This document shows, one piece after another, positions 2,641 to 63,413 of a stretch of DNA of 64,000 bases. The notes below the pieces were generated by a model. The model was not told the origin of the DNA. It made no database searches and worked only from the letters and a program-made list of their open reading frames with translations. The stretch is from the NCBI RefSeq assembly GCF_004010195.1, contig NC_057718.1:54882497-54946496 (forward strand). The letters run 5' to 3'. Origin of the DNA: Chiloscyllium plagiosum. Its lineage: Eukaryota. A program made the position numbers and the translations under genes. Numbering within the stretch: the first letter of the stretch is position 1; the number at the start of each line of letters is the position of its first letter.

Positions 2641-3170
2641 ATTTTGAAAAAATGCTTCCTCTTGTAGGAGCATCTGGAACCAGGAGTCACTGTTTAAGAA
2701 TTATGGGACACCCATTTAAGACAGGAATAAGCAAAATTTATTTCTCCCAGAATGTCGTTGGTCTGTTACTCTGTTCCCCAAAAGAAGTGCAAGGTGGTAG
2801 AAGCAGAGTCTTTGAATATTTTTAAGGCAGAGGTAGATTGTGGATGAGCAAAGAGGTGAAATGTTAGTGAAGATAGGCAAGAAGATGGTGTAACCAGATG
2901 AAAATGTGTTGCTGGAAAAGCGCAGCAGGTCAGGCAGCATCCAAGGAGTAGGAGAATCGACGTTTCGGGCATGAGCACTTCTTCAGGAATGAAGAAGGGC
3001 TCATGCCCGAAACGTCGATTCTCTTGCTCCTTGGATGCTGCCTGACCTGCTGCGCTTTTCCATCAACACATTTTCAGCTCTGATCTCTAGCATCTGCAGT
3101 CTTCACTTTCTCCTAGGTGTAACCAGATGAACTATGATCTTATTGAGTTGCAGAGCACACTTCTGCTTCT
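2641..3170 (+). mobile_element. CR1 LINE 3' fragment interrupted by a PLE hairpin insertion
   Basis: EKMLPLVGASGTRSHCLRIMGHPFKT..YFSQNVV; continuity restored across the TSD at 2887-2902/3116-3131. Confidence 0.8.
2903..3115. mobile_element. Self-inverted mini-PLE (family A) with hammerhead motifs
   Basis: About 85-bp near-perfect inverted arms; 16-bp TSD ggtgtaaccagatgaa; minus strand reads ctgaaga-a-gtgc-tcat-gccc-gaaa-cg-tc. Confidence 0.85.
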
Positions 3171-3399
3171 AATTAAAATGTTTGCATGTGTACTTTGCAT
3201 TGTTTATATAATAGATGTGACAGGTTTAGAAGGTGCTATCAAAGGAACCTTGGTGAATTACTGTAGTGCAATTTGTAGATGGTACTCCGTGCAACCATAG
3301 TTCGTTGGTGATAAGGAAGTGAATAGTAAGGTGATGAATGGGGCACTAATCAGTCAGCTTTGTCCTCCGATGCTTTACAGGACCCAAGATCAGACATCT

Positions 3400-3890
3400 T
3401 TGATACAAAAAGCATATAAAGAATTATTAACTAATTAAAAGAAGGGCCAAACATGTGGGTTTTAAGAGGCACTTTAAAGGAGAAGTGCGACAGTGAGCTT
3501 TAGGAAAGAAATGCAGAGTTAGCACCTAGTCGGCTGAAAGTATGGCCACCAATGATGGGCAATATTATGGGAATGTGCAAAAGGCAGCAGTTGGAGGATC
3601 ACAGAGATCTTAAAAATCACATAACATTAGGTTATAGTCCAGCAGGTTTATGTGGAAGCACTAGCTTTTGGAGCACTGCTCCTTCATCAGGCAACGCTGT
3701 GAAAACTAGTGCTTCCAAAAAAATCTATTGGGCTATAACCTGGTGTTGTGTGATTTTTAACTTTGTGCACCTCAGTCCAGCACCATCTTCTCTAAATTAC
3801 AGAGATCTTGGAGAACTCTGGACAGAAGGAGTTTAAAAAATATGGAGGGACAATGTATGCAGGGGTTTGAACGAGGACAGCATTTAAATT
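3400..3890 (-). mobile_element. L2-like LINE 3' fragment interrupted by a PLE hairpin
   Basis: Degraded LINE 3' sequence resembling 45600-45780; split by an 11-bp TSD. Confidence 0.5.
3612..3798. mobile_element. Self-inverted mini-PLE (family B) with hammerhead motif
   Basis: Inverted arms; 11-bp TSD acagagatctt (3601-3611/3799-3809); identical family to the terminal repeats of the GIY-YIG element at 41120-43245. Confidence 0.85.
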
Positions 3891-7318: not shown

Positions 7319-7625
7319 AGATTCGATTCCCTACAGTATGGAAACAGGCCCTTCAGCCCAACAAGTCCACACTGACCCTCCGAAGAGTAACCCACCCATG
7401 ACCCATTCCCCTACTAATGCACCTAACACTACGGGCAATTTAGCATGGCCAATTCACTTGACCTGCACATCTTTGGATTGTGGGAGGAAACCGGCGCACC
7501 CGGAGGAAACCCACGCAGACACAGGAAGAATGTGCAAACTCCACGCAGACAGTTGTCCGAGGCTGGATTCGAACCCGAATCCCTGGCGCTGTGAGACAGC
7601 AATGCTAACCACTGAGCCACCGTGC
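7319..7625 (-). mobile_element. HE1/V-SINE
   Basis: Full tRNA head, V-domain and tail; 13-bp TSD gacctgtacaatt (7306-7318/7626-7638). Confidence 0.95.
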
Positions 7626-8315
7626 GACCTGTACAATTGTACCAAAATAAAGAAAATAATAATTTTAAAGTTGATAGGAACTATTTTTAGGAAAAGTATA
7701 ATTTCTTATTGAATTTCTTATTTTTTCTATCATTTACTTTTAAATTTTTATTGTATGGTAGATAAATTATTTGAGGTGGTTGGAATATCACGTGTGAATT
7801 ATTCAAAACACTGCAAGAAGAATGGTGCAATGACCTGATGTGCTTATGATGTAACAGGGCTTTCACTGTGGAATGGAAGTTAGTGACTCAAACTATTCAT
7901 TGCTAGAATGGGAAATATTGATCTTGGATTCAAGACCTTTTTGTTTAACCATTGTTACAATTCAGAAACAGACACCCAAATCGAATCAGCCTTCCTACCT
8001 CTGTATTCGCAACATAGAAAAATTAGAATATTCAGTGAGCCTCCATGTTGACCCCAAAATTGTTCCTGAGCAGAATTTTTCTAAATAACCAGTGCCAGAC
8101 TTTGTGAATAATCGACATTAGACACCAAGTTTACAGCTTTAAAAAAGATGTAACAACTTATTAATAATAACAGAGCAAAGTGAAACAATAAGGTAATCTA
8201 ATTAATGTCTACAATGTGAACCCAATAACCTTTGTTGTCAGCCCCATTCACACAAAAAGCTGGCAGAGAAACAAATACAGTTGAGAGATAAATTAAAAGA
8301 AAAATAACAAAACTT

Positions 8316-9324: not shown

Positions 9325-9775
9325 CAGTGATGTGACACAGTGGCTCAATGGTTATCACTGTTGCCAGGGACCCGGGATCGATTCCAGCCTCAGGCAACTT
9401 TCTGTGTGGAATTTGTACATGCTCCCTGTGTCTGGGTGGGTTTCTTCCGGATGCTCTGGTTTCCACTCACAGCCTAAAGGTTTGCAGGTTAGATGGATTG
9501 GCCATGCTAATTGCCCATAGTGTCCAGGGATGTGCAGGATAGGTGGATTACCCATGGGATTCCTGAAGAAGGGCTCATGCCCAAAACGTCGATTTTCCTG
9601 CTCCTTGGATGCTGCCTGACCTGCTGCACTTTTCCAGCAACACATTTTCAGCTACCCATGGGAAATGCAGGGTTACAGGGATATGGGTTTGGTTAGGATG
9701 CTCTTTGGAGAGTTGGTGTGAGTTTCATAGGCTGCATGGCCTGCTTCTACACTATAAGAATTTTATGATTCCATG
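9325..9775 (+). mobile_element. V-SINE (older subfamily) containing a PLE family A insertion
   Basis: tRNA-like head, V-domain and CR1 tail; split by TSD tacccatggga. Confidence 0.9.
9560..9652 (+). mobile_element. PLE family A terminal fragment with hammerhead motif (GAAA changed to AAAA)
   Basis: ctgaaga-a-gggc-tcat-gccc-aaaa-cgtc; 11-bp TSD tacccatggga. Confidence 0.8.
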
Positions 9776-11463: not shown

Positions 11464-11676
11464 TTCTGGATTAGTGGTGCTGGAAGAGCACAGCAGTTCA
11501 GGCAGCATCCGAGGAGCAGTAAAATTGACGTTTTGGGCAAAAGCCCTTCATCAGGAATCGGCTTTTGCACGAAACGTTGATTTTACTGCTCCTCGGACGC
11601 TGCTTGAACTGCTGTGCTCTTCCAGCACCACTAATCCAGAATCTGGTTTCCAGCATCTGCAGTCTTTGTTTTTACC
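11464..11676. mobile_element. Self-inverted mini-PLE (family A variant)
   Basis: About 80-bp inverted arms; 14-bp TSD aacttgaagcaact (11450-11463/11677-11690); minus strand reads ctgatga-a-gggc-tttt-gccc-aaaa-cgtc. Confidence 0.85.
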
Positions 11677-11811: not shown

Positions 11812-12127
11812 GGGCGGCACGGTGGCACAGTGGTTAGCACTGCTGCCTCACAGCGCCAGAGACCCGGGTTCAATTCCCGCCTCAGGCGACTGACTGTGTG
11901 GAGTTTGCACGTTCTTCCCGTGTCTGCGTGGGTTTCCTCCGGGTGCTCCGGTTTCCTCCCACAGTCCAAAGATGTGCAGGGCCAGGTGAATTGGCGAAGC
12001 TAAATTGCCCGTAGTGTTCGGTAAGGGGTAAATGTAGGGGTATGGGTGGGTTTCGCTTCGGTGGGTCGGTGTGGACTTGTTGGGCTGAAGGGCCTGTTTC
12101 CACACTGTAATCTAATCTAATCTAATC
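11812..12127 (+). mobile_element. HE1/V-SINE, young full-length copy
   Basis: CpG-rich tRNA head with A/B boxes, V-domain, tail ending in (taatc)n. Confidence 0.95.
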
Positions 12128-13054: not shown

Positions 13055-13250
13055 ATAATAAAACAAAATACTGGGGATGCTCGAAATCTGAAACAAAAAC
13101 AAAAATTATTGGAGAAACTCAGCAGGTCTGGCAGCATTGTAGTGAGAAAACTAAGTAAATGTTTCAAGTTTAGTGACCCTTGAACAGAAGAAGAATCACT
13201 GGGCTCGAAACATGAATTCTGTATCTCAAGCAATTTCTTTTCTTGTATTT
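13055..13250. mobile_element. PLE family C terminal repeat, partly self-inverted
   Basis: aaaacaaaatactggggatgctcgaaatctgaaac..cagcaggtctggcagca..gaagaagaatcactgggctcgaaacatg. Confidence 0.65.
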
Positions 13251-17889: not shown

Positions 17890-18325
17890 GAGCTATAGGG
17901 AGAGGCTGAATAGGCTGGGGCTGTTTTCTCTGGTGTGTCAGAGGCTGAGGGGTGACCTTATGGAGATTTATAAAATCATGAGGAGCATGGATAGGGTAAA
18001 TAGGCAAGGTCTTTTCCCTGGGTTGGGGAAGTCCAAAACTAGAGAGCATAGTTTTAAGGTGAATGGGGAAAGATATAAAAGGTACCTCAGAGGCAACTTT
18101 GTCATGAAGAGTGAATGATATGGAATGAGCTGCCAGAGGAAGTAGTGGAGGCTGGTACAACTACAGTATTTAAAAAGCACCTGGATGGCTATATAAAGGG
18201 GAAAGCTTTAGATGGATATGGGCCAAATGCTGGCAAGTGGAACTAGATTTATGTGGGATATTTGGTCGGCATGGACAAGCTGGACAGAAGAATCTATTTC
18301 CGTGCTGTATATTTCCATGACTCCA
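17890..18325 (+). mobile_element. HER1/CR1 LINE 3' end
   Basis: RLRGDLMEIYKIMRSMDRV..GLFP..KTREHSFKV followed by the HER1-type tail. Confidence 0.9.
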
Positions 18326-19959: not shown

Positions 19960-20060
19960 TGGAAAAAGCAGATTATTGCAGTTCCTGATAATTTGAAATA
20001 TGAAGATGTTGGAAATGCTGAGCAGGTCCGGCAGCATTTGAGAGAAAAACAGAGTTAACG
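19960..20060 (-). mobile_element. PLE family C terminal fragment
   Basis: gctgagcaggtccggcagcatttgagagaaaaacagagttaacg. Confidence 0.6.
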
Positions 20061-20061: not shown

Positions 20062-20380
20062 ATAGAATCATAGAATTCCCTACAGTGCAGATAGAGACCA
20101 TTCGGCCCATTGTGTTTGCACTGACCATCCAAAGAACATTCTACCCAGACACACCACCCCACTCTATCCTCATAACCCCACATTTTTCATAGCTAATCCA
20201 CCTACTCTGCGCACCCATGGATACTACAAGGCAATTTAGCAAGGCCACTCCGCCTAACCTGCATGTCTTTGGACTGTGGGAGGAAACCAGAGCACCTAGA
20301 GGAAACCCACATGGACATTGGGGAGAACAGTCACCCAAGGCTGGAATCATACCAGGATCGATGGTGCTGTGAGTCACCTG
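20062..20380 (-). mobile_element. V-SINE, partial
   Basis: V-domain and CR1-type tail on the reverse strand. Confidence 0.85.
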
Positions 20381-21649
20381 TACTAGAAATTAGTGGAGTT
20401 CATCTGGAGCAGACAGGAAAGCAGATGCAATAGAAGAATCACATAAGACGTCATGCGCCCAACCTCCAGAAAGGAAAACTGTCCCTCACTTAGTAATTGG
20501 CAGAAAGGGCTGATGTGGGAAATCTATCTGCTAACAACAGAAAGGCAATTAGACTCATTATGGAGCCACTTAAACTAATTATCTTTGAGCCCACCGGGAT
20601 TTCATGGTGGCTTTAGGATTATCAGAGGTACGCATGGGTCTTTCATCCCTACAGAAAGCTTCTCAACAAACTTTGTTGGGTTTACCAATGGTCTACACAG
20701 AGAATCCTTCATTCACAAGCACTTGATGCCTACCTAAGCAGTCGAGCATCATCAAGTGGGGGAACGGATCTTCTGAGGTCCATCCCTCTCCCCTTGCATC
20801 TGACACCTTTCTCATCACCAAACCATCCCCTTGTGATTCTTTCCCACCCATTTATCTTTCCTTTCATCCAGCAGTGATCCCTGGTGAAGGCCCCAGTATG
20901 TTTACAGCCATGGCCCTGTTTCTGGTAATGGAAAGCTGTCGGCTCCTCATTGGCTTCCAGATTTTGGGGTGAGTTTCTGCCTTGTTGAGAACTTAATCTG
21001 GCATGAGGTCACACCATAGACAGGTAAGTAACTGCTTACCTTGTAATTGTGTCAGGCCTCCCAGACGAAAGCAATGTAGGATTTTCACAGGAATCTTCAT
21101 CTGATTACCAGGAGCTCCTTCCCCAAGAACACCGAAGTCTGGCAAATGTTTTGGATCTGTGCTCTTGCAACAGAACACTAGCGAAGTCATCTATTGAAAC
21201 ATTTCTCTCTTAACAGATACTGCCAAACCTGCTGATTCCTAACCATCATTCTCTGATTACATATAATTTGAAGGTTTTGACCATATGTGTTCGGGAAAAG
21301 GAATGTTATAGATGTTCAGTATGGTACATGGGAATACATCAAATCTAGTTACACCTGGGCTTGAAACCTTGGCTACCTTGGACAGAAGGTAAAATCTCTC
21401 AGCAGCTATTTCAGCAACACATTCAGTCTTAAAGTGAGAAGACAACTCATTTGCAGCCGCAAGCTATCCAGTATATTTGGTCTGTAAAGAAACTTACTAC
21501 TCAAAAATAAAAGCTATTTATTGCAGTCTGTCCCACTTTTATCAGTCTCTGCATACATAATCCTAAAAGATTTCAGGTCTTATAATGTTTTGTGGTGCAT
21601 TGTTGTTGGCTGTTAGTCTGGTATCTGCTCAATCTTGAGGTGCTGTTCC

Positions 21650-23540: not shown

Positions 23541-24464
23541 CCTGCAATAGGGTAAAGGCTTATTGCAAACATACCCAAAATAAAGTGGAAGAAAAATTTG
23601 CAATGTCCTGAAATTGAACAAACTGAGCATTTACTTCAAAACAGTAGTCAAACATTGTGTGCGTTTGACAACCCATAGTTCCAAGAAGGATTTAGACAAG
23701 AAAGCCTGAAAAAACAACTCCATTGTAGGATGAAGTCAAAGTTGTCACAGGTGAAGAACCCTGTGAGGAAAAGCAGAGAAAGCATCCTCGGAGCAAAAGG
23801 GCCTTCACCTCTGCTTCTAGTTCTACCTCTGCATCCCTGCTAGGTTCCAAAAATCACAATCAGTATTTCTCTTCTTCCCTCTCACTGTCCTCAGACTGTC
23901 AGAGGCCTCTTCTTTCATCATCTCCAACTACCAGTCAGTTGTGCATGTAATGCTAAAATGACATTGTGACCCAAAATCTAATCACAGTCGTATAATCACT
24001 GAGATAAAAATTTCGGCACTGATGGAGAATGTAAGGGAATGATGTAATACTGCATTCTCCTCCTCAGAGGTCTCATGGAAATGGCAGCTCTCTGAAACTG
24101 TGAGGAAAAACACAGCTATCAATAGTTCTCTCACTTCCATGGGAACCCTCAGAATTGGTTGCAGTTCACAGACGTCTGTACATTGGAGGACAGGTGATCT
24201 CTGCCCCTCTACTTGTCCGATGAAGTTTTCACGTCTGCTGATGAGTTGACTCTGTTTTCTGTGACTGAATGCCAGCCTCACCATCCACAACAAATCAGTC
24301 ATTCTCATGCCCTGTCAGCTTCAAAGTCTCCTCTTACATAAGGCTGGTCTGAACCCTGTCTTTGGATTCTTACACCTTATTCCCTTGTAGGAATACAGGA
24401 GTATAATGTTAAAGCCAATACTCCAGCAAACGCAATGTATAGCCACTTTGCCAGCTTACTGCAG

Positions 24465-35177: not shown

Positions 35178-35264
35178 GAAAGTGCTTATGCCTGAAATGT
35201 CGATTCTTCTGCTGCTTAGGGGCTGTCTGACCTGCTGTGCTTTTCCAGCACCACACTCTTGACT
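35178..35264 (+). mobile_element. PLE family A terminal fragment
   Basis: gtgcttatgcctgaaatgtcgattc..ctgacctgctgtgcttttccagca; 14-bp TSD ctga(t/c)tcataaggt. Confidence 0.75.
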
Positions 35265-36419: not shown

Positions 36420-37490
36420 ACATATATTTCTTGACAAAAGACACATTTATGTTGCACTAATTAGGAAAATTTGTAATCTGCCAATTCAAGGGAAATGCTA
36501 CTATTTATACTGCATGAGAGGAGAGTGCTGATTGGTTGGCAAATGGATTTTGATAGTGGGATTGTCACGGAAATGCATCAGTTAATAATGATTGACAGAT
36601 AACCACCAGGCTTTGTTTAAAATTTAAACCAATTTGATTGGGCAGGACATTGCCCTGAGAAAAAAATTAGCAAATTGCGATCATTTATTGGTTGAATTCA
36701 AACAAGCATATGACCTTTCTTCTGTAGAGAACACTTTCCTGCAATTAATACATGTAGTTTCCAGTGCATACTGTGAGCAGCACACTCTGAGCCAGACTGA
36801 CAATCCTAAATTATTTGTCAGAGTAATTCTTTGCACTTAGGATGATGTAGCAAATGTTCAATTGATGAATCACATCTAATGTTGGACAATAAGTTGTGAA
36901 GTTTTCAAGCATGGGCTTGTTGGGTACAGTCAGTACCTTGTTTATTGAGTACAGCGAAAGATATGCTGTTTGATACCATCCATCAGAATTTGGAATGTAG
37001 GTTGTACATACCTAGCATCTCATTGGCATTGAAACTCATAGACCACATTACTTACTTATGTAGCAGGCAGAACATCTTTTGGCTTAATGGCAGCATCCTA
37101 GCGGCAATGAATTTCACTGGTGTTTCTACTGTGTATTAGAAGTACGAAACAGCTGGCTTAATCTGTCGCTCAAGCTTCTGAGATACCATACCCTTCCATG
37201 TACTTTTCGTGACCAAGAGAAACCTCTGCAGACTTTTAAAGAGCTTATATAATATGCAGTGAGAGATTATTGAATCCAGGTAGCCATTATGCCACAGGAT
37301 GGCTCTGATATGTCCTGTTTCAATCTCAGTTTCGCAGAATGAATAAATGATTCAGGTCTTGTTTGCAAGGTTCTCTCATTGAATTGGTATTCTTACAAAT
37401 TGTCCTGACGAGTGCAAGACAAACGAGCTTCAATAAAATGTGTTTTTTTCAAGCAATTACTCAAGTTCTGTATTACCAAATAACTATTTT
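36420..37490 (-). mobile_element. Penelope-like element (family D): GIY-YIG remnant between inverted terminal repeats
   Basis: Minus-strand KDVLPAT*VSNVVYEFQCQ*DARYV..T..ILMDGIKQH; 36420-36490 is an inverted, partly deleted copy of 37378-37460, which contains tgtc-ctgacga-gtgcaagac. Confidence 0.8.
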
Positions 37491-39140: not shown

Positions 39141-40139
39141 CTTTTGCTTCATGAGTCCAGCCTCTTCTTCCTTTAAGTTGTCAAGTTCCCGAAGCTCACA
39201 TTAAAAATAAACTAAATGTAATTTGAAGGCACGCTGTCTTGTTATAATGGTAGAATGCGTAACAAAGCTCCTATGATCATGTTTGCCTCTGCCCTCATCC
39301 CACTTGTGTCAAAACTGGTAGTAGTAAATTCATTTCCTGCTCCAGATTTGATTGCCTTTTACCAAGACTTGATACCAGCCCTATTTTAGGAGTTAAGATT
39401 CAGCCCAATACTTGCATGTTCAGTAAATTTGCATTAAATTGTTTTATGACACTATATGCTGTAGCTACAAGTTGTGGTTATGTGCGGTCAGCTTTGGTGA
39501 ATAACACCAAACCTCCTAAGAACACTGGGTTGAGTTACGTTAGTATAATGAGAAGATCATGGAGGAGATTTCCCATCCCCTTTATGTCATCACGTGAGTT
39601 GCCTGTGAATAGAATTTCTTTTTAAAATACATCTGTAAGTGATAGACTCAGTATTCACATTTCTTTTTCTTATACAGTCAAAGGTTCCAAATGTTACCTC
39701 TTGGAATCAATCTGACAGTTGGCAACCCAGAGGGCACTGTGATGAGGTTATTCAGAGAAAGATCTAATTCCATTGTATTGCCAATAACTGAAGGACACAA
39801 ATTTACAGTCACCAAAACAAAGCAAAGGATGTTGTTAGGATATGGAATGTCCTACAGAAATAAGTTTAGTGCACAGTGTATGATCATTTTTAAAATGAAC
39901 TTAGGTATATGTTTAAAAATGAAAGGGCAATAGAATAAGTCTAAGTGGATGGATCAAATTTAAAAATCTATGATCCTAAACTTCTGCCCTTGACAAATAA
40001 ATATGCAAGACTTTAAAACCAATGGATCATTTATGATGAACATTAAGAAGAACAAAGGCAAGTATTTCAGATGTTGTTAAAGAGAAAAATAAAGAGAACG
40101 TTCTGATAGGAATAAAACAATAAAAGTCGGATCCCCACC

Positions 40140-40370
40140 AGAAATGGAACAAAAACAGAAAATGCTGGAAACGTTCATGAGTTCAGACAGCTCTTTTGGA
40201 GAGAATACATGAAGTAATATTATGGGCGTTGACCATTTTGCTTGGATAAAGCATCTCTGCCCAAAACATTAACTCATTTGTTCTTTCCACTAATGTTACT
40301 TGACCTGCTGAATGATTCCAGCATTTTCTGTTTTGGTTACAGGTTTCCGGCTTCTGAAGTTTTTGTTTGA
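40140..40370. mobile_element. PLE family C remnants in inverted orientation
   Basis: aaaacagaaaatgctggaa ... ttccagcattttctgtttt inverted arms. Confidence 0.55.
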
Positions 40371-41119: not shown

Positions 41120-42660
41120 AAAATCACACAACACCAGGTTATAGCCCAACAGGTTTATTTGGAAGCACTAATTTTCGAAGCACTGCTCCTTCGTCAGGTA
41201 GTGGTGAAGCAGGACCAGAAGATGCACATGCAGGAGAGAGAGAGTGTGTGCATGAGAATGTGAATGCACGTAAGAGAGTGAGTGTTTGCGTGTGTGCAAA
41301 CTTGGTAAACTGTGTGTGAGTGTGATGGGGTACAAGTTTGTGAGAGCGTGCATGTGTGAGTGTGGGGTGTGTATGTGTGTGTGTATATCTGAGAGAATGT
41401 GTATGAGAGAGGGTCTGCGTGAGTATGTAAGAGTGTTGGTGTATATGAGAGAGTGTATAGTGTAGTTGGGTCACCTGTAGTATGACATAAATCCAAGGTT
41501 CTGGTTGAGGCCATCCTCTTGGTCACTGAACTTGGCTACCAGCCTCTGCTCGGCCACTTTGCGTTGTTGCCTGTCCCGAAGTCCGCCTTGGAGGACGGTC
41601 ACCCAAAGATCCGAGGCCAAATGTCCCCGACTACTGAAGTGTTCCCCAACTGGGACACGTGAAGGTGCTCAAGGATGCCCTCATAAGAACAGGGTACGAT
41701 GCTCAACTCATCAATTACCAGTTTCGATGTGCCACAGTGAGAAACCGTAATGACCTCTTCAGGAGGCAGACACGGTTGCAACCGACAGGGTACCCTTCGT
41801 TGTCCAGTACTTCCCAGGAGCCAAAAGAGCCTTGTTCTTCGCAGCCTGCAACACATTATCGGTGATGAGCACCTCACCAAGATCTTCCCGACACCTCCAT
41901 TTCTCGTCACTTAACAACCAGCAAACCTTAAACAGATCATTGTTAACAGCAAACTGCGCAGCCTTCAGGACAACGTCGGTCACAACACTGTACAACCCTG
42001 TCATGGCAACCACTGCAAGACGTGTCAGAATGTCGACACAGATACCACCATTACATGTGGGGACACCACCCACCATGTACACGGCAGGTACTCATGTGAC
42101 TCCGCCTACTTTGTCTATCTCAGGCAGCAGGCAAGAATGCCCTGAGGCATGATACATTGGCAAGACCAAGCAGACACTACAACAACAGATGAATGGACAT
42201 CACGCAACAATCACCTGACAGGGGTGTTCCCTCTCAGTCGGGGAACACTTCAGCGGTCAGGGACACTCGGCCTCGGATCTTTGGGTGACCGTCCTCCAAG
42301 GCAGACTTTGGAACAGGCAACAACACAAAGTGGCCGAGCAGAGGCTGATAGCCAAGTTCGGTACCCCATGGGGATGACCCCTCAACTGGGACCTTGGGTT
42401 CATGTCACACTACAGGTGACCCCATTACAGTATACACTCCTATTCACACACACTATTGCATACTCGCACACTCAAGCAGACCCTCTGTCATACACACGCT
42501 CTCTCTGAAACACACACACACACATACATATCCACACACTCACACCCACACATGAACCCTCGCATAGGCTTATACCCTTTTCACACTCACACACACACTT
42601 TGCCAAGCTTCCACATGCAAAAACACTCTCACTCTCATGCACACACTCACATGCGCGCAC

Positions 42661-42694
<34 letters not shown>

Positions 42695-43245
42695 GCATGT
42701 GTAAACACGTATAAGTCTATGGGGTGAATTTGTATTTACAGAATAATATTTACAGATACATTTTGTTTTGCTCAAAAAATGCACAACCTGCAGGCAGTTA
42801 ATGCATGCAGTCAATCCATGTAATATTTTGTAAATTCCACTATAGAAATCAAACCAGTCTGACTCAAGATTGGGATACAGACAGACTCTAACCTCACACC
42901 TTTAATACATTGAGCTGAGATGTCACCTTTTTTTATAAAATCTCATGTTATCTTGAAAATGTGGCTTAAAAGAAGTTCTGGGATTTACATAATAATGAAC
43001 CAAAACCTGCAACTCATTCTAAAAGGTCAAAGACTTAACAGCAATCTAGGTTTGTTCAACATATCATTTCAGTTGCATGCACTGTAATCTTTTGCTATAA
43101 ATACTGTGTCTTATGGTCCTGCTTCTGATGAAATAGCAGCGTTCTGAAAATTAGTGCTTCTAAATAAACCTGTTGGACTATAACCTGGTGTTGTGTGATT
43201 TTTAACTTTATCCACCCCAGTCCAATGCCAACTCCTCCAAATCAT
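41120..43245 (+). mobile_element. Penelope-like element (family B), 5'-truncated with an inverted 5' duplication
   Basis: GIY-YIG coding remnant, (CA)n-rich 3' region, terminal repeat with hammerhead at about 43124-43155; 41120-41655 is an inverted copy of the 3' part; imperfect TSD catgtt(c/t)aaa. Confidence 0.92.
41657..42420 (+). pseudogene. PLE ORF C-terminus: RT thumb, Cys/His linker and GIY-YIG endonuclease (disrupted)
   Basis: LKDALIRTGY..; PCHGNHCKTC..YSCDSAYFVY..YIGKTKQTL..MNGH..VGEHF..H..AEQRLIAKF; stops and frameshifts present. Confidence 0.9.
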
Positions 43246-43344: not shown

Positions 43345-43440
43345 ATCGATGAAGGGTTCATGCCTGAAACGTCAACGCTGCTGCTCCTTGGATGCAGCCT
43401 GACCTGCTGTGCTTTCCCAGTGCCATACTTTTCAACTTTT
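43345..43440 (+). mobile_element. PLE family A terminal fragment
   Basis: gatgaagggttcatgcctgaaacgtc..ctccttggatgcagcctgacctgctg. Confidence 0.75.
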
Positions 43441-43839
43441 CACTGACCAGCAAAATGAGGGAAACAAAAGGGTAAATGGATTTGTTAAGCTGGCAGCATT
43501 CCCGCTGATGCAAAGTGAAATGATTGTTGCAACATGGCTCTTAGGGCCTCACATTCCATAACTGAGAGGGCTACCATCTTATCAACATTCAGTTTGCTTA
43601 TGGCCATGCCCTGAAAACCCTGTCAGTGAATGCCCACTCTGATCATAACAGCCATGATTATTTTGTTCCACAGGAGTTAGCCTTTGTATCATCAAGCCAG
43701 GAAAGTTTGAACAACCTGGATCTCTAGGAAAGAGAAAAGAAAAATTCTTTGAAATTGTGAAAGAATATGATAGACGTAGTAGACAAGATGGGCAACTCCA
43801 GAAGTACAGACACAAGCATAAGATAGTCACTTACAAATT

Positions 43840-45215: not shown

Positions 45216-45269
45216 CTGCCCTTCTCTGAACCAAGTTTCTGTAATTCAATAAGGACTTCAGGAGGAATC

Positions 45270-45460
45270 TCTTAACGATAACTAAGTGGAACTGTCATCG
45301 TATTTCAGGTTAAAAAAAGGTAGATGACCTCATAAAAGAGAAAGGAATAGAAGGATATATTGATAGGTTTGCTGAAGAAAGGTGGAAGGAAGTTTGTGCA
45401 GAACGTAAGTACCAGCCGGGACTTGTTGGGCCAAATGGCATGTTTATGTACTCTTAAATA
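45270..45460 (+). mobile_element. CR1 3' tail fragment
   Basis: ..accagccgggacttgttgggccaaatggcatgtt. Confidence 0.55.
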
Positions 45461-45599
45461 TTTTGTCATACTTTGTTCCTCTCTTCAAGACATTCCTTAA
45501 AACTCACCTTATCTGGCACAGAGTTTTGAAGAATCCAGAAACTGAAATATCATAAACAGCAGAAAATACCACTGGTGGAGTAAAGGAAATTAGTAATGC

Positions 45600-45780
45600 A
45601 GAAGAGATTAGAAAGGAGAAATACAGATTTCCAGAACAGTTATAGGGCTAAAGGAGGTCACAGAGATTGGAAGGCTGAGGCTATGGACAGATTTGAACCC
45701 AATGACGAGAATTTTAAGTTTAGGGCATTGCAGGATTGCTAGATCTGAAAGCAAAGGGTGATGGCAAGCCACCCATTCTT
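45600..45780 (-). mobile_element. L2-like LINE fragment
   Basis: Minus-strand LKILVIGFKSVHSLSLP resembles the L2 ORF2 3' region. Confidence 0.55.
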
Positions 45781-46934
45781 TTAAGTTGTTCAGGAAGGCA
45801 TCTTGTATAAGCATATTAAATTCAACTGTGCATATAGAGTAAATTAAATGGATCTACCTTTGTGTGGCCTGCATGGAAATGTTTGGGGTTGCTGTGTAGC
45901 CACACACCTTCGAGGAAATATTGTGATGGATGAATGAGAATTAATATTAAGATAGGATAGGGCAGCAGGATTTTGGTTCAACTTAAGTTTATGGAGAGTG
46001 AAAACTTCTCCATCAAATTGGAAGACTTTGCCCAAAATGAATTTCCTTCCTATCTATCTATCTCTAAAGTTATAGTGCCATTTTTATGTCATAACATAAC
46101 TACAGGTTTAAATTAAGACACGGAGAGCTTTTCAACTTGTGCAATGTTTGTATTTTTGGTTAATCAAAGGCAACTAGATTGAATTGCATTTATAAAAAAA
46201 AATAAACTTTACAGCCATTACAGCACAAATATTTCACCTTGATACAGTGTGGTGAACAGTTTTACTGAGAGCTGAACTGGAAACTAATTGGCAGTTAGGT
46301 TTGCTCTTTTGTCACATATCACAGGAGTGCCAAAGAAAACCATGAAACCTGGAACATTATCAGGTTGTAAAAAAGTGATAGTTTACATGATTTACGCTTG
46401 CATGCTTTGTAAGTTCATATACAATACTTCAGAGTTCAACTTTGACCTCCAGTTGTAATCAAATTCAAACTGGAATATCCCTGCTGGTATTTTTAAGTTA
46501 AATCTGTGCTTTTCTGACCATCTCTAATGAGGCTTATGAAAGGCAAAAACACTTTGAAGTGTGATGGAGAATTTATGGTATCATAGCCTATCAAGCTGAC
46601 TAGAGTGAGAATAATGGGCTTGGATATTGATTTCTCCCCAAAAATGCCTCACGTCACCCAAATAATCATGGAGAACCAAGAAGTGCAGCACTCCCCAGCA
46701 AAACTTCTCCCAGTTCAAATGGAAGTAAGTACATTTCCCAAGCTCTCCTTATTTCCTGACTCAAAGATTCTCTCTTTTTTTTCAGTCCGATGACTACAAT
46801 GGCTCCACTCAAATTTTTTTCCAGCCTCCACCAAATCATTTGCAATTAGAGATGTTGAGTATGAAGTCCTCATTTCACTTTTTAGAGGTGCTGAAATTAA
46901 AGAACTGAAAGCAACATTCCCATTCTAAAAGATG

Positions 46935-47130
46935 AGAAACTTAACAAACAATCCAGGTCTTTTTTAATATATAATTTCAATTACATAACACTGTAAACTT
47001 TTGCTACATTCTGTGTCCTACGATCGTATACTCCACAACCACCTGATGAAGGAACAGTGCTCTGAAAGCTAGTGCTTCCAAATAAACCTGTTGGACTATA
47101 ACCTGGTGTTGTGTGATTTGTGATTTACTT
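46935..47130 (+). mobile_element. PLE family B 3' terminal repeat
   Basis: Colinear with 43030-43210. Confidence 0.85.
47040..47074 (+). ncRNA. Minimal type-I hammerhead ribozyme motif, core intact
   Basis: cac-CTGATGA-a-ggaac-agt-gctct-GAAA-gc-TA-gtg: helix I cac/gtg, helix II with one mismatch, palindromic AGCT at helix III. Confidence 0.7.
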
Positions 47131-47869: not shown

Positions 47870-48230
47870 GAGGTGACCCAGGTAATATTCTGGGGACCTG
47901 GCTTCAAATCTCTACCATGGCAAATGATAGAATTTGAATGCAATAAAAAAAATAGAATTAATAAACCATAAAACCATTGTCAGTTGTTGGAAAAACCCAA
48001 CGGTTCGACTAATGACTTAACAAACAGTCCAGGTATTTTTCAATATATAATGTCAGTTACATAACACTGTAAACGTTTGCTACATTGTGTCCTATGATCT
48101 TATACTGCACAACCAACCTGATGAAGGAGCAGAACTCAGACAGCAATGTGGTTGACTCTTAACTGCACTCTGGTTAATTAGGGTTGTACAATAAATACTG
48201 GCCTAGACAGTGATGCCCACATCCCATTGT
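47870..48230 (+). mobile_element. tRNA-derived SINE with a CR1/L2-type tail, interrupted by a PLE family B fragment (48012-48136)
   Basis: ggggacctggcttcaaatc..atggcaaatg..cagcaatgtggttgactcttaactgc..aataaatactggcc; the insert ends cctgatgaaggagcag. Confidence 0.75.
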
Positions 48231-50274: not shown

Positions 50275-52391
50275 TATCTGATTTAAATCACAAAAACATT
50301 AGGGAAATTGCAATAATCCTGAGTTCTAAGGTGGAAGCCTCAATCAAAGGTAATGATGACCAGATATGGAATTGCAAATTAATACCAGTTCTTTAAACTG
50401 TATCCTAAGTTCTATACTGAGATCGCAGGATTGCTTTTTCTTGCAAAGGTTTCCTAAATGTTTTAATATTCGTATTCAAGGATGCGTTCACACGACCTAT
50501 TAATGCGACATTTCCATGTTTCACTTCTTCCATTACACAATTTTCATCATACCTATCTGTAAGGCATTTCTGAAATGCATAAGCTTCCTATTTTTATCAC
50601 ATATTTGAGCTCAGATTGACTCATTTTTTCCACATGACTCAGTTCACTCCTGGTTCTACCGGCTGTTAGATTGTGTGTGAGAGGTGCAATGGTGCTGTTT
50701 CTATTAGTGCTACCAGCCTGAAGCCTTTCGAGATTGAGTTTCTCACCTTTGCTTCCTCCCTCTGCTCTCATGCTTGATGCTGTTTTCTATTCTCATAATT
50801 CACTCAAGAAGCCAGTAAGGTTTGCATGGACATGACAGCTTGTTACATTATATGAGCTGCTGCTCATGATGAAGATGGTTGCCATCCATCTTTTTAAGCA
50901 TAGGAAACTACAGATAGTTGTTAGTATGAGGAGGAAAGCCACTTCCTGGTCTTGTTATAGTCTCTTGCAGTTAATGAGATATAGATTATTGCAGGTTAGT
51001 AACTAGTTACAGGCTACATTGATATAATAGTCATTGTTACACAGACTTTGAGAGAACCAAATGTTAGGTCTCACTCCTTTAAGATCTTAAGCTAGTCTAT
51101 GCAAATTTATATGACATTATCATAGTATGTGGCACTATGGTGCTTCTCAATATTCATTTTTCAGACCCCTCGACAATAGTAAGACCTCTCCGCTCTTGTT
51201 CAGAGGGCTGATGCTGTCTCACTCCTCTCTGCTGCTTAATGTATCCCAACCCAAGAAATATAAAAATGATACATTATAAGCCAATTTCCATAAGCCAACT
51301 TTACTTGCTTTAAAGTGCCTACTGCACTTTCACTAAAATTCCAGTTCTGCTCAGTACACGTTTCAAAGCATTAGATTCCAGTTCCTAAATAGCTAAGAAC
51401 ACAGCAATCTGACAGGTCATCACAAGCAGCTTTCCTGCCCCAACTGGGCATTGTGGAATGATTTTCTTAGTTCACATAGTAAATATGTCATGAAAATTAC
51501 CTGTGCAACTAAGATCTCAGAGACCAGATTTAAGAAAATTTTAAAACATCAAAGGATGGAAGGGGGTAAATACTTGCAATCCTGAAAGTTTTCTTCTCAT
51601 ACTGCCTTTCTCCCCCCAAAAATGCACAGCCAGATTCTGTAGCTGCAGTCATAACACGTGATATAGTGTAGTATTTAAAACTGGGAATGAATATTGTGAA
51701 TGTGAGATATTTCAAAACTATTCTTGATTTATCACTTTATTTTCTGCAGTGGGAATTTAAAAGATGTCAATAATTGGCAGCAATAATAAGAGATTACATT
51801 GGTAAATGCTTTTATTGTATAGGTATCCTGCTTCCTTCTTTTGTGACATGTAGAGAAACTAAGCAAAATGAATAATTGTTGCTACGCATTTTAAACTTGT
51901 GTGAAAGTAGAATCATTAAAATATTTTGACATCATTAAAAATTATTTTCAGAGATTTGAGATATAGATAAAAATGTAATCATTGCTCCGCAGTACTCAGT
52001 ATCTAAGCATGACTGGGGCAGATGTATGGACGGAAGACCTGGCAATCGATAAATAATTGAAACATTCTTTCCTGCTCGTGAGACAATACATGTTCCTTCA
52101 GGAGCAAGGTCACTTATTTCTCGTGTAGCGATAAAGCATTATTCTGACAGTGCAGTCAAACTGTGCACAGAGACATACGAGGAGATACTTTCAAGAGAGA
52201 AAGTACCCCAATAGCTTTGAGTAAGTGCCCAAAATAATAGGGCACTGAGCAATATAGATCATAAAAATCCTGTTATCAATCCTGATGGTTTTAACCTTGC
52301 TCATCTGCTGGAAATTGGACATGCTATTAAAATAATTGTGCTGGCTTAGTCTCTCCAACTCTGTTACCTTCTCACAGGAATTTTATTTAGC

Positions 52392-52510
52392 AGTTCTGAA
52401 AAAGAATTATATCACACCTGAAATGTTAACTCTCTTTGTCTCACCACAGATGCTGCCAGACCTTACTAACTTTCTTCAACATTTTCTGTTTTTATTTTAT
52501 ATTTTTTGAA
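52392..52510 (+). mobile_element. PLE family C terminal repeat
   Basis: gttctgaaaaag..tgaaatgttaactctc..cacagatgctgccagacc. Confidence 0.7.
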
Positions 52511-52714
52511 TCTGCAGTATTTTGCTTTTATGCAGTTTTATCCTCCTCTTCTGAATAGCTGCTAAAAGGGAGCAGGTCCATTCATTTAATATTGTAGGTC
52601 AGGCTCCAACCAGGTCCTCAGGACCTAGCTGTGAAGGGGAGATGACCCACAGGGTAGCTGAGTTTTATTTTATTTGCTTTCTTGTTGGCCTGGAGGAACA
52701 GGAGTTTTATCCAT

Positions 52715-52850
52715 AATAAAACAAAGAACTGCGGATGTTGAAAATCTGAAACAAAGACAGAAGTTTCTGGAGAAATTCAGCAGGTTTGACAGTATCTGTA
52801 GGAAGAAAGCAGAGTTAACATTTCAAGTGCAGTGACTCTTCATCAGAAGA
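52715..52850 (-). mobile_element. PLE family C terminal repeat with hammerhead motif
   Basis: Minus strand tt-CTGATGA-a-gagt-cactgc-actt-GAAA-tg-TT-aac. Confidence 0.8.
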
Positions 52851-53189
52851 GTTGTAGGAAATTGGAAGTTGTAGGAAAAGTTGTAAGAAGCTTTAGGTAT
52901 AGTCATCCAGAAAAACTGGACCTTGCAACCCCAGGTGTTGTGCTTCAACCATAATGCCTTGCCAGCACTCCTTCCTACCCAAGTGTTGGTGATTGTTCCT
53001 TCACTGCAGTGTTTGCTACCAGTATCTCACTGCAAACCAGTGGCCACCTAGTGCTTTCTGCTGGGTTTAGACAGTGCAATAGGAGAATATCTCCTGACCT
53101 TCTGCTAAAAGGACAGGATGACTTGATGGCTGGTTTGGTTTTTGATTTGGTTCCTGGTAACATAATTCCCTCAAGGGCAATACAACTGT

Positions 53190-53645
53190 GGATAATAGAA
53201 AAATGCTAGAAACTCTTCCCAGCTATGGAGAAAGAAAAATGTAGTTACGTTTCAGGTCTGTGAACTTGCATCAAAACTAAGCTAAGATGGAAATTGAACA
53301 GGTTTTAAGCACATGAAAGGATGGAGTGTGGAAAGACCAAAAGGAAATGTCTGTGATGGCTTGGGAGGGCCAGACAGATTGAATGACAAAAGGTTTCATA
53401 GTGCAAAGCCAAAGGAAGGGGTGATAGGACAAGGAAAGAAACAAAAGTTATGTGTTGTGGTGATGTGAATGGAAGAACAACAACCATCCAAAGACACAGT
53501 AAAGAAACTTAGAAAGATACAAGAGAAGAATAATGAAACAAGATGGGAGGTAATTATGATCTAAAATTGTTAAGTGGAGAAATGTCCAGTTGGAAGATAA
53601 GCTGTTGTTCCTCAAATTTATGTTGAACTTCATTAAAACACTTCA
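53190..53645 (-). mobile_element. PLE 3' end (GIY-YIG C-terminus and terminal repeat, family C type)
   Basis: Minus-strand EVQHKFEEQQLIFQL..LNNFRS*, then a pyrimidine-rich region and tgatgcaag..ctgaaacgtaac. Confidence 0.7.
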
Positions 53646-53736
53646 GTGTTAAGAATATAACCTTCTACTTGAGAAAGGATAGAACTACAGACCTGTTAGC
53701 CTCATGATTGTAGAAGGAAAAGTACTAGAATATATT

Positions 53737-54040
53737 AGGCTCAGTGGTTAGCACTGCAACCTCACAGCACCAGGGTCCCAGTTTCGATTCCAGCCTCGGG
53801 TGACTGTCTGTGTGGAGTTTGCACATTCTCCCTGTGTCTGTGTGGGTTTCTTCCGGGTGCTCCGGTTTCCTCCCACAGTCCAAAGATGTGCAGGTCAGGT
53901 GAATTGGCCATGCTAAATTGCCCATAGTGTTAGGTGCATTATTCAGAGTTAAATGGGTTTGGATGGGTTACTCCTTGGAGGGTCGGTGTGGACTGGTTGG
54001 GCCAAAGGGCCTGTTTCCACACTGTAGGGAATCTAATCTA
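53737..54040 (+). mobile_element. HE1/V-SINE
   Basis: tRNA head, V-domain, tail aatctaatcta. Confidence 0.95.
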
Positions 54041-55644: not shown

Positions 55645-55760
55645 TTTGCCCAAAACATTGATTTTCCTGCTCCTTGGATACTGGCTGACCTGCTCTGCTT
55701 TTCCAGCACCACTCTAATCTTGACTCTGATCTCCAGCATCTGCAGTACTCATGTTCACCA
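55645..55760 (+). mobile_element. PLE family A terminal fragment
   Basis: tttgcccaaaacattgattttcctgctccttgga..tctgatctccagcatctgcag. Confidence 0.75.
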
Positions 55761-55994
55761 AGTAAATGTTAACAGGCTATTATATCCAAGCCTGATTTCA
55801 TCCTCATGCAACAGCACATGTGGTTTTGTTCCCACTTTAACTATTTGCTAGGAATTAGAAGTAACAAACATACCTTATCTTTCCCTTCCTTTGATGAGGA
55901 TATTGAGTGCAGTTAGTGTTTCCATCAGCTGGCCTGATTATGATCAAGGTACTCAAATCAAAATCGATCATCTATTTCCTGGACTTCCTGACCC

Positions 55995-56222: not shown

Positions 56223-57034
56223 GATCTATTTATTAGTTCCACTGAGCTATCACTGGAGCCCCAAATCAAAGATTTAAATATATCAACCAAATATGTGTCT
56301 CTGTGCCAGAATCTGTGGAAATTGTCTGGATGACCCCTCATTTTAGGCCTTGTTGAATATTTAAAGGCAGTATTGGACTAGACACTGCCATAAAATTCCT
56401 TTATCTAATTGATTTACCATTAACGTCATTAAGAGGAAAGGGTGAATTTCTATAGGAATTCTCCCACCTATCTGGACTAACTTTAGACAAAGAGCCTCAA
56501 AATTCTGAAAATTTTAGGTTTTCATGATTCTGCCACAACATACAATAGAAAATTGGGGAGAATAAAAACAACAACATTCACCATTTACAGCCTCCAAGTG
56601 AAAAAATAAATGTATAAATAAACAGGGAGGAAACCTTCAGAAAAATGAATGAGAACAAATTAAGGGAACTATTCCTAGTTCAAAGAAATCATTTCTACAG
56701 CAATATGTTTATTCCCAACTAAGTTGTCCGACCTGGCTTGAACACTTTTGTTTATGCAATGCATGGAAAAGTGGTATTTGCACATACATTTCATTTTTAT
56801 TTCAAAAGGAAAAGCTCTCAAGCGAAAAACTATTTGAAGCACATGAATGCAACAACATATTCCAACTTCATGGGAAACAAAAAAACCTTCAGAAAAATAG
56901 AAAGCAATTGATGGACATTTTTTCTACTATTTTCCAAGTTGAACATGCAACAATATTTACTTAGTTTGGCAGGCATTTCTGTTGTTGTGTAAACTGCTAA
57001 TGTCTCTAGATTTTACTGAAGTAATGCATCTCAT

Positions 57035-57372
57035 GCCCTACATCCCTGGAACATCTGGGCAACAAGGCTATATACATCAGGCCCCTACTTACTGACTACA
57101 CCTCCACCTTCAACACCATAATTCCAAGCAAACTTATCTCCAAACTCGAGGACCTAGGTCTCTGCTCCCCGCTTTGTAATCAGATTCTCGACTTCCTGAC
57201 CAACAGACTGCAGACAGTAAGGACAGGCATTAACATCTCCCCCACTATAATCCTCAACACTAGTGCCCTGCAAGGCTGCACACTCAGCCCCCTACTGTAC
57301 TCATCATACAAACACCACTATTTTGCTAAATTCTGCACCAACTCCAATTTTCAAGTTTGCTGACAATGCCAC
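57035..57372 (+). mobile_element. Rex1/Babar LINE reverse transcriptase fragment
   Basis: LEHL..YIRPLLTDYTSTFNTIIPSKLISKLEDLGL..ILDFLTNRLQTVR..QGCTLSPLLYS..KFADN. Confidence 0.88.
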
Positions 57373-57605
57373 CCTGTCTGTGTGGGTTTCTTCCAGGTGC
57401 TCCGGTTTTCTCCCACAATCCAAAGATCTGCAACTTAGGTGAATTAGCCGTGCTAAATTGCCCACAGTGTTCAGGGATATTAGGTGCATTAGTCAGGGGT
57501 AAATATAGGATAGAAGAATGGGTGTGGGTGGGTTACTTGTCGGAGGTCAATGTGAACTTGTTGGGCCGAAGGGCCTGTTTCCATACTGTCGGGACTCTAT
57601 GACCC
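57373..57605 (+). mobile_element. V-SINE 3' half
   Basis: Begins mid V-domain; CR1 tail. Confidence 0.9.
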
Positions 57606-58403: not shown

Positions 58404-58404
58404 C

Positions 58405-61464: not shown

Positions 61465-61674
61465 CAGGCGATTCGCAGTTTACAAATGACTGACTTATGA
61501 ATGCTTGTAGTTAGAAATGCGATCCAGAGGTATATTAATATTAATTTTAAAGATCTGATGTGAACATTTCCTCATACTCATGAATGGCTATTTTATTTTG
61601 TGCTGTATTGTGTTCCAACTTGCATACAAATCAACTTGCAAATAGACTCAAACATAGAACATGCAGAATGCCTG
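61465..61674. mobile_element. Tigger-like MITE
   Basis: ta-caggcgattc ... gaatgcctg inverted termini. Confidence 0.55.
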
Positions 61675-63204
61675 TTTTGTGATTAGAGTACCTGAATAGC
61701 ATTCCATGTGCAAAGTGTCTATTTACATAATTACAGCTGGAATGGTCTTTTGAACTGGTTTCTATCACCTAAGGAATTCAGAAAGTGGTTTTCCAGATCT
61801 TTTCTTCCCTAATTGGACTGGGTGCTTATCTTTCTTTTGACGCTCACATGGCTTTTGGATGAAATGAGATGGTGTAGATGTATATATTATGAAGTAGACA
61901 GTACAGTTTAAGGGGACAAGCTGGAAGAGCCAGTTGTTAGTATAGCAAACTGACAATGCAAGAAGGGCTTCTTGCTTTCAATTGTATTTTTTTCTGTAAG
62001 GTGCAATATTGTTTCTGGTGAAGTTGTCTGTATAATTATTTCATTGCTACATTACTGTTGATAAATAAACTTCTTGAAGTTGAACATTTTTTGAAATTGT
62101 AAAGTATCTCTCATTTGAGTTGGTCTCTACAGCAAAATGAGTGCGCTGAATTTATGAAAGTCTGTAGTTATCCACATAAGCATAATATTTAATTTGCACA
62201 TTCTGATCACAGAAGACATTGCACATAGTTAGCAATATATTTCAAGAGCTTCTTTAGATTTTACTTTTCAATGCCACATATATGATCCATGCCAGGATCT
62301 TGTATGTGGATAAGTCTGAAGACCAGTTGCCAGGGAAGACTAAAAGGGTAACTCACTTTGGCCAGGGTAGGAAAGTTGGTGATTGTAGATTAGCTATGTG
62401 TCTGTCATACATACCACTCGATTTTCCTTTCCATTATATTCATTGATCTGCAGCTGTGAGTTTTCTGCCCATATCCAAAATGGAAATTAACCCATTACAT
62501 TCTTGAGAGAAACCATAACAGAGCTATGCATACTTTTGCAGCCAGACTTGAGATTTGCCTCGAGAGATTGCTCTCTCTGTCTTTGAAGGTTACAGCTGCA
62601 TTGAATATTTTTACAGAAGGGTCTTTATAGGCAACCTTTGGAGACCTCTGTCACATTTTTAAAATTCCGTCCACAATTGTATCACACAAATCAGGGATGT
62701 ATTTTAGCCAGGGCCAATAAAATTAACTGTTTCCCTTTGGAAAACAACTGACATAGGATTAAATTTTCCACTCCTGTCATGTTCCACGGAGTACGAGACA
62801 TATTTGACTATATGCACGTTACACAATGATGGTGCATTCATGAACACAAAGAGCTAAATTCATGTGAATGTGGAGCTGTTCTGTGACCACTTTGCATGTA
62901 TAGCCAATCCAAGAACATGTTGAACAAAATAAGACAAATGAAAGAAATACCAGATATACAGTTGGAGTTTGTCAGCAACAGCAGCTGAAGAGGAAGACAA
63001 ATTACTGTTCGAAAGGTTAAAGTGCAGGTAGAGTACAGTGTATTTTTGGCTATCCATTTGAAACTTCTAATGGTCGTACAGGGGCCATAGACCCCTATTT
63101 AAAAATGCCTGTGCTAAGTCACAGCAGGAGATTCTATCATTTAGTTTCAGCCATTTACCTCAGCTACCAGGAAATTGGCTTTGAAATCAACCAGTAACTA
63201 TCCC

Positions 63205-63413
63205 TGATATGGCGATGTCTGTGTTGGACTAGAGTGTACAAAGTTAAAAATCACACAACACTAGGTTATAGTCCAACAGGTTTAATTGGAAGCACTAGCT
63301 TTCGGAGTGCCGCTCTTTCATCAGGTGGTTGTGGACACAGCCAACTGATGAAGGAGCAGCGCTCCGAAAGCCAGTGCTTCCAATTAAACCTGTTAGACTA
63401 TAATCTGGTGTTG
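63205..63413. mobile_element. Self-inverted mini-PLE (family B) with two divergent hammerhead motifs
   Basis: Inverted arms; TSD agtaactat(c/a)cc (63193-63204/63414-63425); + arm ctgatga-a-ggagc-agc-gctcc-gaaa-gc-ca; - arm cac-ctgatga-a-agagc-ggc-actcc-gaaa-gc-ta-gtg. Confidence 0.85.

Follow-up and report, generated by a model that had tools for sequence, protein, structure and literature searches.

Minimal type-I hammerhead ribozymes in the pseudo-long terminal repeats (pseudo-LTRs) of Penelope-like elements (PLEs) number in the thousands in vertebrate genomes and have been found en masse in fishes, coelacanth and frog; their monomers are inactive and their dimers weakly active (Cervera and De la Pena 2014, PMC4209133). 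Dimer cleavage of small PLE hammerheads is reported to be covered by Lunse et al. (as cited in PMC6765202), and the role of the hammerhead for PLEs has been called unclear (bioRxiv 10.1101/2021.04.23.441226). In the green anole Poseidon element PAc (Frangieh et al. 2024, PMC11167929), the hammerhead lies upstream of a tail, reverse transcription starts from two internal sites that define this tail, and uncut RNA is the main template; the PAc hammerhead cuts only with protein present and is dispensable for insertion in vitro. Here we analyzed a 64,000-nt stretch of the shark Chiloscyllium plagiosum (contig NC_057718.1, positions 54,882,497 to 54,946,496, hereafter the window), in which the initial annotation had described four families (A to D) of dispersed repeats carrying minimal hammerhead motifs. 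The statement in that annotation that PLE pseudo-LTRs carry minimal type-I hammerheads is in print (PMC4209133), and in the window families B and D sit on PLE bodies. The hosts listed in PMC4209133 are fishes, coelacanth, frog and reptiles, with no shark named in the text covered, and our literature search, which did not extend to supplements, found no family-level description of shark PLE hammerheads. The motif class has been known since 2014, and the shark-type families are an addition to it.

We consider it very probable that the repeats derive from the 3’ ends of hammerhead-bearing PLEs of three or more lineages, now decayed, likely inserted as 5’-truncated and often folded-back copies of uncut RNA, and mostly predicted to be inactive. 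Searches with nhmmer profiles built from the window copies of families A, B and C, together with a by-eye reading of family D, identified 29 arms at 21 loci (17 arms on the plus and 12 on the minus strand). Family A accounted for 8 arms at 6 loci, family B for 8 arms at 5 loci, C-like repeats for 11 arms at 9 loci and family D for 2 arms at 1 locus; weak A-profile matches at 16667 (E 0.53) and 27329 (E 0.94, within a C-like arm) were left out of the arm count. Each position named in the annotation contained a copy or part-copy of its stated family, and those at 2953, 11520, 3659, 41166, 63293 and 52815 proved to be minus-strand arms. The proposal of four families sharing little sequence failed for A versus C: the C profile matched 8/8 A arms (E 2e-9 to 5e-5) through a common tail, leaving three lineages (A/C, B and D) and ruling out four unrelated families. 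Judged by sequence, the repeats are assigned to at least three PLE lineages, the link to PLEs being firm in B and D and indirect in the A/C lineage.

Family B is represented by a long plus-strand insertion at 41123..43242, a putative 5’-truncated Neptune-type PLE recognized by tblastn, its linker and a target-site duplication (TSD). The plus-strand body contains the C-terminal part of a reverse transcriptase (RT), a CX4CxxC linker and a GIY-YIG endonuclease at 41656-42416, followed by a CA-rich 3’ untranslated region (UTR), a TATA-like box at ~43096, a hammerhead with its core position C3 at 43125 and a tail to 43242. An inverted, internally deleted 3’ copy on the minus strand (41123-41656, hammerhead C3 41197) is located 5’ of the body, the arms are 85-88% identical, and the insertion is flanked by a 10-bp TSD with one mismatch. 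The open reading frame (ORF) shared 50-72% identity with shark and other PLE ORFs in tblastn, and the endonuclease matched 17/22 candidate proteins, the named ones among them coming from sharks at 65-83% identity; over the endonuclease, identity to shark PLE ORFs was 65-71%. The RT core itself is absent from the window and was found in the relatives P0006 (of family B), which has a Pfam RVT_1 domain, and P0014. The cysteine linker was present in 106/121 related endonucleases. A CX2-5CxxC linker between RT and endonuclease characterizes the Neptune and Nematis clades (bioRxiv 10.1101/2021.04.23.441226), which suggests that family B belongs to one of them; we favor Neptune, as it is the clade given for fishes in PMC4209133. 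No GIY-YIG family was found by Pfam in 9 frames around the PLE remnants or in 4 intact relatives, and since the endonuclease is missed even in intact relatives, Pfam is blind to this GIY-YIG. The plus-strand ORF with its linker confirms that family B is joined to a GIY-YIG remnant, as the annotation had stated.

The same statement held for family D, whose insertion at 36430..37490 is apparently of the Penelope/Poseidon type. Its minus-strand body comprises a thumb and GIY-YIG remnant (37370-36700), a TATA box and a degraded hammerhead near 36465, and an inverted plus-strand arm (37375-37490) carries a half-motif at 37405. The GIY-YIG remnant matched P0168 with an E of 1.5e-14, and the cysteine linker is absent from both; by this feature, a linker-free GIY-YIG, the family falls in the Penelope/Poseidon clade. 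Neither arm has the minimal type-I layout. The CUGANGA half noted in the annotation is present, and with the GAAA half broken the hammerhead identity of family D is unconfirmable from the window. For family C, the claimed attachment to GIY-YIG is suggestive at most. The long copy at 52728..53660 on the minus strand has a tail and a near-intact hammerhead (C3 52846), with ~700 nt of presumed 3’ UTR upstream and a possible endonuclease C-terminus at 53557-53643, which we take to resemble an endonuclease C-terminus motif. A search for relatives of this remnant gave 1 candidate and none at E up to 1; the remnant had no Atlas match and was not among the endonuclease-profile matches.

We assessed the motifs with a strict minimal-hammerhead descriptor that required every core letter and at least 3/4 helix II pairs. 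The descriptor gave 7 matches in the window, 6 of which also form at least 2 pairs in helix I (2986-, 41197-, 43125+, 47043+, 52846- and 63324-, named by C3 position and strand). In 100 dinucleotide shuffles the mean was 0.26 (maximum 3) for the strict descriptor and 0.09 (maximum 1) with helix I added; with one core mismatch allowed, 20 matches (12 with helix I) were found, compared to 6.0 (1.8) in 30 shuffles. The six strict matches are not independent events, since the copies are related and all are family members; the seventh (62985+) lacks helix I and belongs to no family. This descriptor search, one of the checks proposed in the annotation, supported the hammerhead motifs. The proposed Rfam check did not, as no hammerhead match was obtained at E up to 1 over the window or at E up to 10 over 41100-41300, and only sub-threshold microRNA (miRNA)-like and other chance matches were returned for the window. 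Such repeats yield false miRNA-like hairpin matches in Rfam.

The minimal type-I order of elements (CUGANGA, an extra base, helix II, GAAA, two nucleotides, UH and helix I) that the annotation had reported for families A, B and C was complete in 6 arms of these families and in a distant outside relative of family B (L001, described below), and most other copies are broken. The strings given for these families are consensus-like, and 9/15 tabulated arms lack a full core. Among the 6/15 arms with a full core, only 2986- and 41197- retain G10.1-C11.1; in the remaining 14 of the 29 arms the core region is absent or more degraded. Many of the core losses fall on the CG of the helix II-GAAA junction, a pattern expected from CpG decay. 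Compared to the motifs in PMC4209133, helix I is only 2-3 bp here and most copies are broken. The best-preserved motif is in family B at 41168..41200 on the minus strand (41197-), with a full core, 5/5 helix II pairs, 3 helix I pairs and palindromic helix III letters. Palindromic letters at 15.1-16.1, which would allow a dimer helix III, were found in 10/15 window arms and in L001 (ACGT in 5/5 A arms, AGCT or AATT in 5/7 B arms, and no palindrome in C, 0/2 arms, or D, 0/1). The C arms have TG or CA (CA in 13187-) at these positions, which points to an original CG with TG as a likely CpG decay product, and the family C string with TG in helix III given in the annotation probably describes such a decayed form. 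Both arms of the long B insertion (41197- and 43125+) have AATT, shared because one template gave rise to both, versus AGCT in other B copies, a double change that preserves the dimer palindrome.

A MAFFT alignment of mixed A, B and C cores misregistered helix II, and the helix pairs were therefore tabulated by core anchors. At 10.2-10.4 the base pairs vary in sequence between A, B, C and L001, yet pairing is retained in the best copies, a comparison of four lineages that carries no statistic. Within families, the changes in the core versus the 3’ flank were 4/44 versus 17/188 for A and 2/66 versus 15/276 for B, suggesting that the core is hardly better preserved than its 3’ flank. The two points by which the annotation had proposed to judge the motifs, conservation of the core over the flanks and covariation of helix II, were split by these results: the core is barely above the flank within families, yet helix II covaries between lineages. 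Selection on the master lineage and not on the inserted copies would reconcile the two.

The comparison with elements outside the window is consistent with such selection. We recovered 2 relatives (L001 and L002) among 133 candidates in metagenome contigs and none among 60 candidates in viral contigs; pattern scans of the collections gave 0 matches to the A/C tail in metagenome and genome contigs and 0 matches to the B tail in viral contigs. L001 has 59% amino-acid identity to family B and an intact motif ~280 nt past the endonuclease stop: no core letter is lost, helix II differs in sequence but remains paired, helix I is 4 bp long, and the palindrome is AGCT. In the tail, 23/25 bases are identical between L001 and family B, the 40 nt upstream agree at 12/40 positions, and the remaining UTR is unalignable. 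L001 keeps the motif while the cores in the window decay like their flanks, and on this sequence comparison we infer that selection preserves the motif in the mobile lineage but not in copies once they are inserted. A block of 21-25 nt past the cut site (L001:1010-1050, window 47080-47110) is near-identical in the two and better conserved than helix II, making it a candidate protein-binding or RT-start signal.

The window units resemble the published insertions of endonuclease-bearing PLEs, which have 5’ truncation, an inverted pseudo-LTR, a 30-40 bp tail at one end and a TSD (PMC3846280, PMC8557442), in their head-to-head fold-backs, one-arm tails and ~10-bp TSDs, and in the linker that is present in B and absent from D. 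They differ in that most units span only 90-220 nt and have their junction at the hammerhead, and in the lack of a direct-repeat partial tandem. Head-to-head fold-backs make up 8/21 loci, inverted arms occur in A, B, C and D (also tailed in D), and five TSD-bounded fold-backs have one arm longer by ~33-50 nt. TSDs of 10-16 bp were found at 7/15 units searched, all of family A or B. The arms of a single insertion are 73-95% identical, suggesting that the insertions are old and of different ages. The fold-back centers vary from unit to unit, which speaks against a single self-copying master palindrome. Of the 16 A and B arms, 12 are short, with starts that range from ~11 nt upstream of C3 to mid-helix II. 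None of the 16 starts at the cut site, which lies 28-29 nt 3’ of C3; this fits uncut RNA as the template, as in PAc. The old C arms, whose boundaries are unclear, are not included in these figures; among them, 20060- starts close to the cut site, at the point where it adjoins another repeat. No same-strand head-to-tail tandem was found among the 29 arms, ruling out retrozyme arrays in the window, and neither a direct pseudo-LTR from a partial tandem nor a full-length element is present there.

In the mechanism that we propose, an autonomous element elsewhere would supply the RT and endonuclease, and reverse transcription would begin, as in PAc, at one of two internal sites 3’ of the hammerhead that define the tail. 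It would then pass the uncleaved motif, often halting just upstream of it or inside it, and a second, inverted copy would be joined at the 5’ junction. The motif would be maintained by selection on mobile master elements, with inserted copies drifting, and the master motif may cut only as a dimer, through its palindromic helix III letters, or with the element’s protein. Counts of 5’ junctions in a genome rich in end-pieces could show whether cut or uncut RNA serves as the template in vivo. A further parallel to PAc breaks down at the start codon: the PAc ORF starts in helix II, and the ATG inside the hammerhead core of family B runs into a stop after eight codons in most copies.

To evaluate activity in place we folded four of the fold-back units whole. 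In the predicted structures (minimum free energy -84 to -173 kcal/mol) the opposite arm takes up the GAAA-NUH half in pairing, and pairing of the CUGANGA half has a p of 0.82-1.00 in 3/5 folded strand-units. There is no pair of intact same-family cores in tandem on one strand in the window. Most inserted copies are therefore predicted from the folding to be inactive in place, and 41197- is probably the best single candidate for cleavage in the window.

Several results weigh against the end-piece interpretation. The family C endonuclease candidate scored 3.4 bits (E 4.6 over the window) and is not significant alone, and family A may be tied to a PLE ORF only indirectly, via its tail homology with C. 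A TSD was absent at 8/15 units searched, including D and all four C units. The CUGANGA half was mostly unpaired, in a terminal loop (p 0.25-0.30), in 2/5 folded strand-units, and isolated motifs folded as monomers gave no hammerhead shape, which is non-positive evidence albeit expected for dimer-type motifs. The counts of core versus flank changes come from 4 and 6 arms picked for holding the core region, and no full-core motif was found downstream of the endonuclease in L002.

We weighed three other explanations for the repeats. The short A and C units might be separate non-autonomous families of 90-220 nt, like short interspersed elements (SINEs), miniature inverted-repeat transposable elements or retrozymes, that use PLE proteins in trans. 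The narrow zone around the core in which the short A and B arms (12/16) start would fit this, as would the absence of any family A copy that extends upstream and the proposal that retrozymes are PLE derivatives (bioRxiv 10.64898/2026.07.22.740005). The non-LTR retrozymes of that report, which have been found in one chondrichthyan genome, are like the window units in having a type-I hammerhead and in being non-coding and PLE-derived; they differ in being head-to-tail tandem arrays in which each unit has a complete hammerhead, a defining trait that the window lacks. With no common master palindrome behind the differing fold-back centers, with stubs that lack the upstream TATA box of the long copies, and with both stubs and a long element in family B, we regard separate families as improbable. 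Still less probable is the idea, implied by the initial annotation, that sense-strand copies are active ribozymes in a host intron, cutting the pre-mRNA singly or as hetero-dimers in a regulatory role. All core letters are indeed present in two plus arms (43125 and 47043) and four minus arms, and the anole PLE hammerhead cuts with protein present (PMC11167929), but these two are the only full-core motifs on the plus strand, and both lack G10.1-C11.1 and carry a mismatch in helix II. Between them, the helix III letters (AATT in 43125+ and AGCT in 47043+) would allow no clean pairing, no intact tandem partner exists for dimer cleavage, the folded fold-backs are predicted to bury the motif, the copies decay at the pace of their flanks, and monomers are inactive and dimers weak in PMC4209133. 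Cleavage in the host pre-mRNA, singly or as dimers, was thus not borne out by the window.

No host gene or strand was identified in our search of the window: exon heuristics gave 27 exon-like candidates, the best 8 of which held nothing usable, and Pfam on 72 frames, most from the top of 679 ranked stop-free frames, gave one weak sub-cutoff match. The exon-like open stretches at 63825-63937(+), 52053-52211(+) and 45508-45647(-) include two that have good splice donors. A PDB search with 63826-63936 and an Atlas search with 52053-52211 returned no match. A sequencing-run search returned no run with more than 0.31 of the words and no RNA run among the records. That the motifs are chance matches in ordinary repeats, with no ribozyme ancestry, would agree with the Rfam null result and with the strict match 62985+ outside any family. 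This explanation can practically be set aside given 6 strict matches versus 0.09 expected, the identical placement of the motif with respect to the tail across A, B and C, and helix II sequences that differ yet pair in A, B, C and L001; the comparison with L001 largely refutes it.

Within the end-piece interpretation, we tentatively raise the possibility, which we hold to be rather doubtful, that the stubs and arms are run-off copies of uncut RNA that starts ~9 nt upstream of the core at a pseudo-LTR TATA promoter. A TATA box and an initiator are in print for a rotifer pseudo-LTR (PMC3846280), and the Drosophila Penelope promoter, which argues against such a start, is TATA-less (PMC2377424). 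In L001 the TATA box starts 39 nt 5’ of C3. The distance in 43125 is 29 nt, this copy having a 9-nt deletion relative to its own inverted twin, so that the corrected distance for family B is 38 nt. Decayed versions at the matching place in 47043 and 48118 also count against a TATA start. The usual spacing from TATA box to start is ~30 nt, so that boxes at -39/-38 would put the start at about -8/-9, which is around where the two arms of the 63205 fold-back begin, and 12/12 short A and B arms start upstream of the cut site, near the predicted start. The inverted D arm does not agree, starting ~25-30 nt upstream of C3 where a TATA box at -45 predicts ~-15, nor do the A arms, which start at -4 and lack upstream sequence. 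If a TATA start is true, the hammerhead would lie within the first 40 nt of a capped transcript and stay silent during retrotransposition, it would instead act as a switch for cap removal, triggered by protein or by dimer formation, and the ends of genomic stubs would map start sites for each PLE family without RNA data.

The other copies vary in preservation. The family A fold-back at 2903..3115 (both strands) has a perfect 16-bp TSD and arms that are 95% identical; its minus arm has the full core (C3 2986), and its plus arm, which lacks C3, bears a tail of ~40 nt. A second A fold-back at 11464..11676 (both strands) has a 14-bp TSD and both cores broken. The solo stubs of family A are all on the plus strand: 9560..9652 has lost G12 and has a perfect 11-bp TSD, 35178..35264 begins inside the core and has a 14-bp TSD with one mismatch, 43346..43441 has lost C3 and U4, and 55645..55762 begins inside helix II. 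Family B also forms fold-backs at 3612..3795 (both strands, both cores broken, 14-bp TSD with one mismatch) and 63205..63413 (both strands, C3 63324- and 63345+, 12-bp TSD with one mismatch), the arms of the latter beginning 9-11 nt upstream of C3. Its plus-strand copy at 46921..47120 extends at least 120 nt upstream into the UTR and has a full core (C3 47043) with G-U at 10.1-11.1 and one helix II mismatch, and the plus-strand copy at 48015..48146 is truncated at the hammerhead and has a broken core. The C-like repeats include an old C fold-back at 13070..13225 (both strands, the plus arm weak at E 0.014), an old C-like fold-back at 40135..40365 (both strands, arms 73% identical) and, by profile match, a degraded plus-strand C stub at 52387..52518 and C-like tails at 2545-2618, 19977-20060 and 35280-35361 on the minus strand and at 21202-21255 and 27278-27363 on the plus strand.

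Family-B endonuclease sequence is included in three shark protein models, P0003, P0007 and P0010 (PPP1R12A-like, septin 5a and XRCC5 isoforms), and the septin 5a model also spans the hammerhead and tail (window 43147-43242, 63207-63302); the cause is either exonisation of PLE sequence or an artefact of the gene models. Pyrimidine tracts with a terminal AG, resembling splice acceptors, occur in the tails of A, B and C (window 3085-3100, 43195-43225, 52740-52800 and 13085-13135). Introns in the 5’ UTR of PLEs are known (PMC8557442, PMC2377424), and splice-acceptor-like PLE tails could feed exonisation.

Apart from the PLE repeats, the window has an assembly gap of 500 N at ~30870-31370 and a local duplication (23788-23877 / 25878-25967) of 90 nt with 83% identity, 2.1 kb apart, that belongs to none of the families examined. 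Related, broken LTR-retrotransposon fragments at 1240-2420 and 28000-30550 hold an integrase core remnant (Pfam rve, E 0.0018), and fragments of long interspersed elements (CR1/L2-like) with RT or AP-endonuclease remnants are located at 64-807, 18000-18250, 24550-24860, 43900-45270 and 57025-57360. A GC-rich minisatellite at 33604-33936, with ~8 copies of 38- and 43-nt units, adjoins the GC-rich region 34500-35000. A SINE-like family of ~300 nt with a tRNA-like end, presumably resembling a shark SINE, is present in at least 9 copies (932-1230, 7321-7626, 9332-9756, 11816-12110, 20070-20404, 26519-26828, 37985-38305, 53738-54039 and 57375-57590), and the A stub at 9560 sits inside the copy at 9332-9756.

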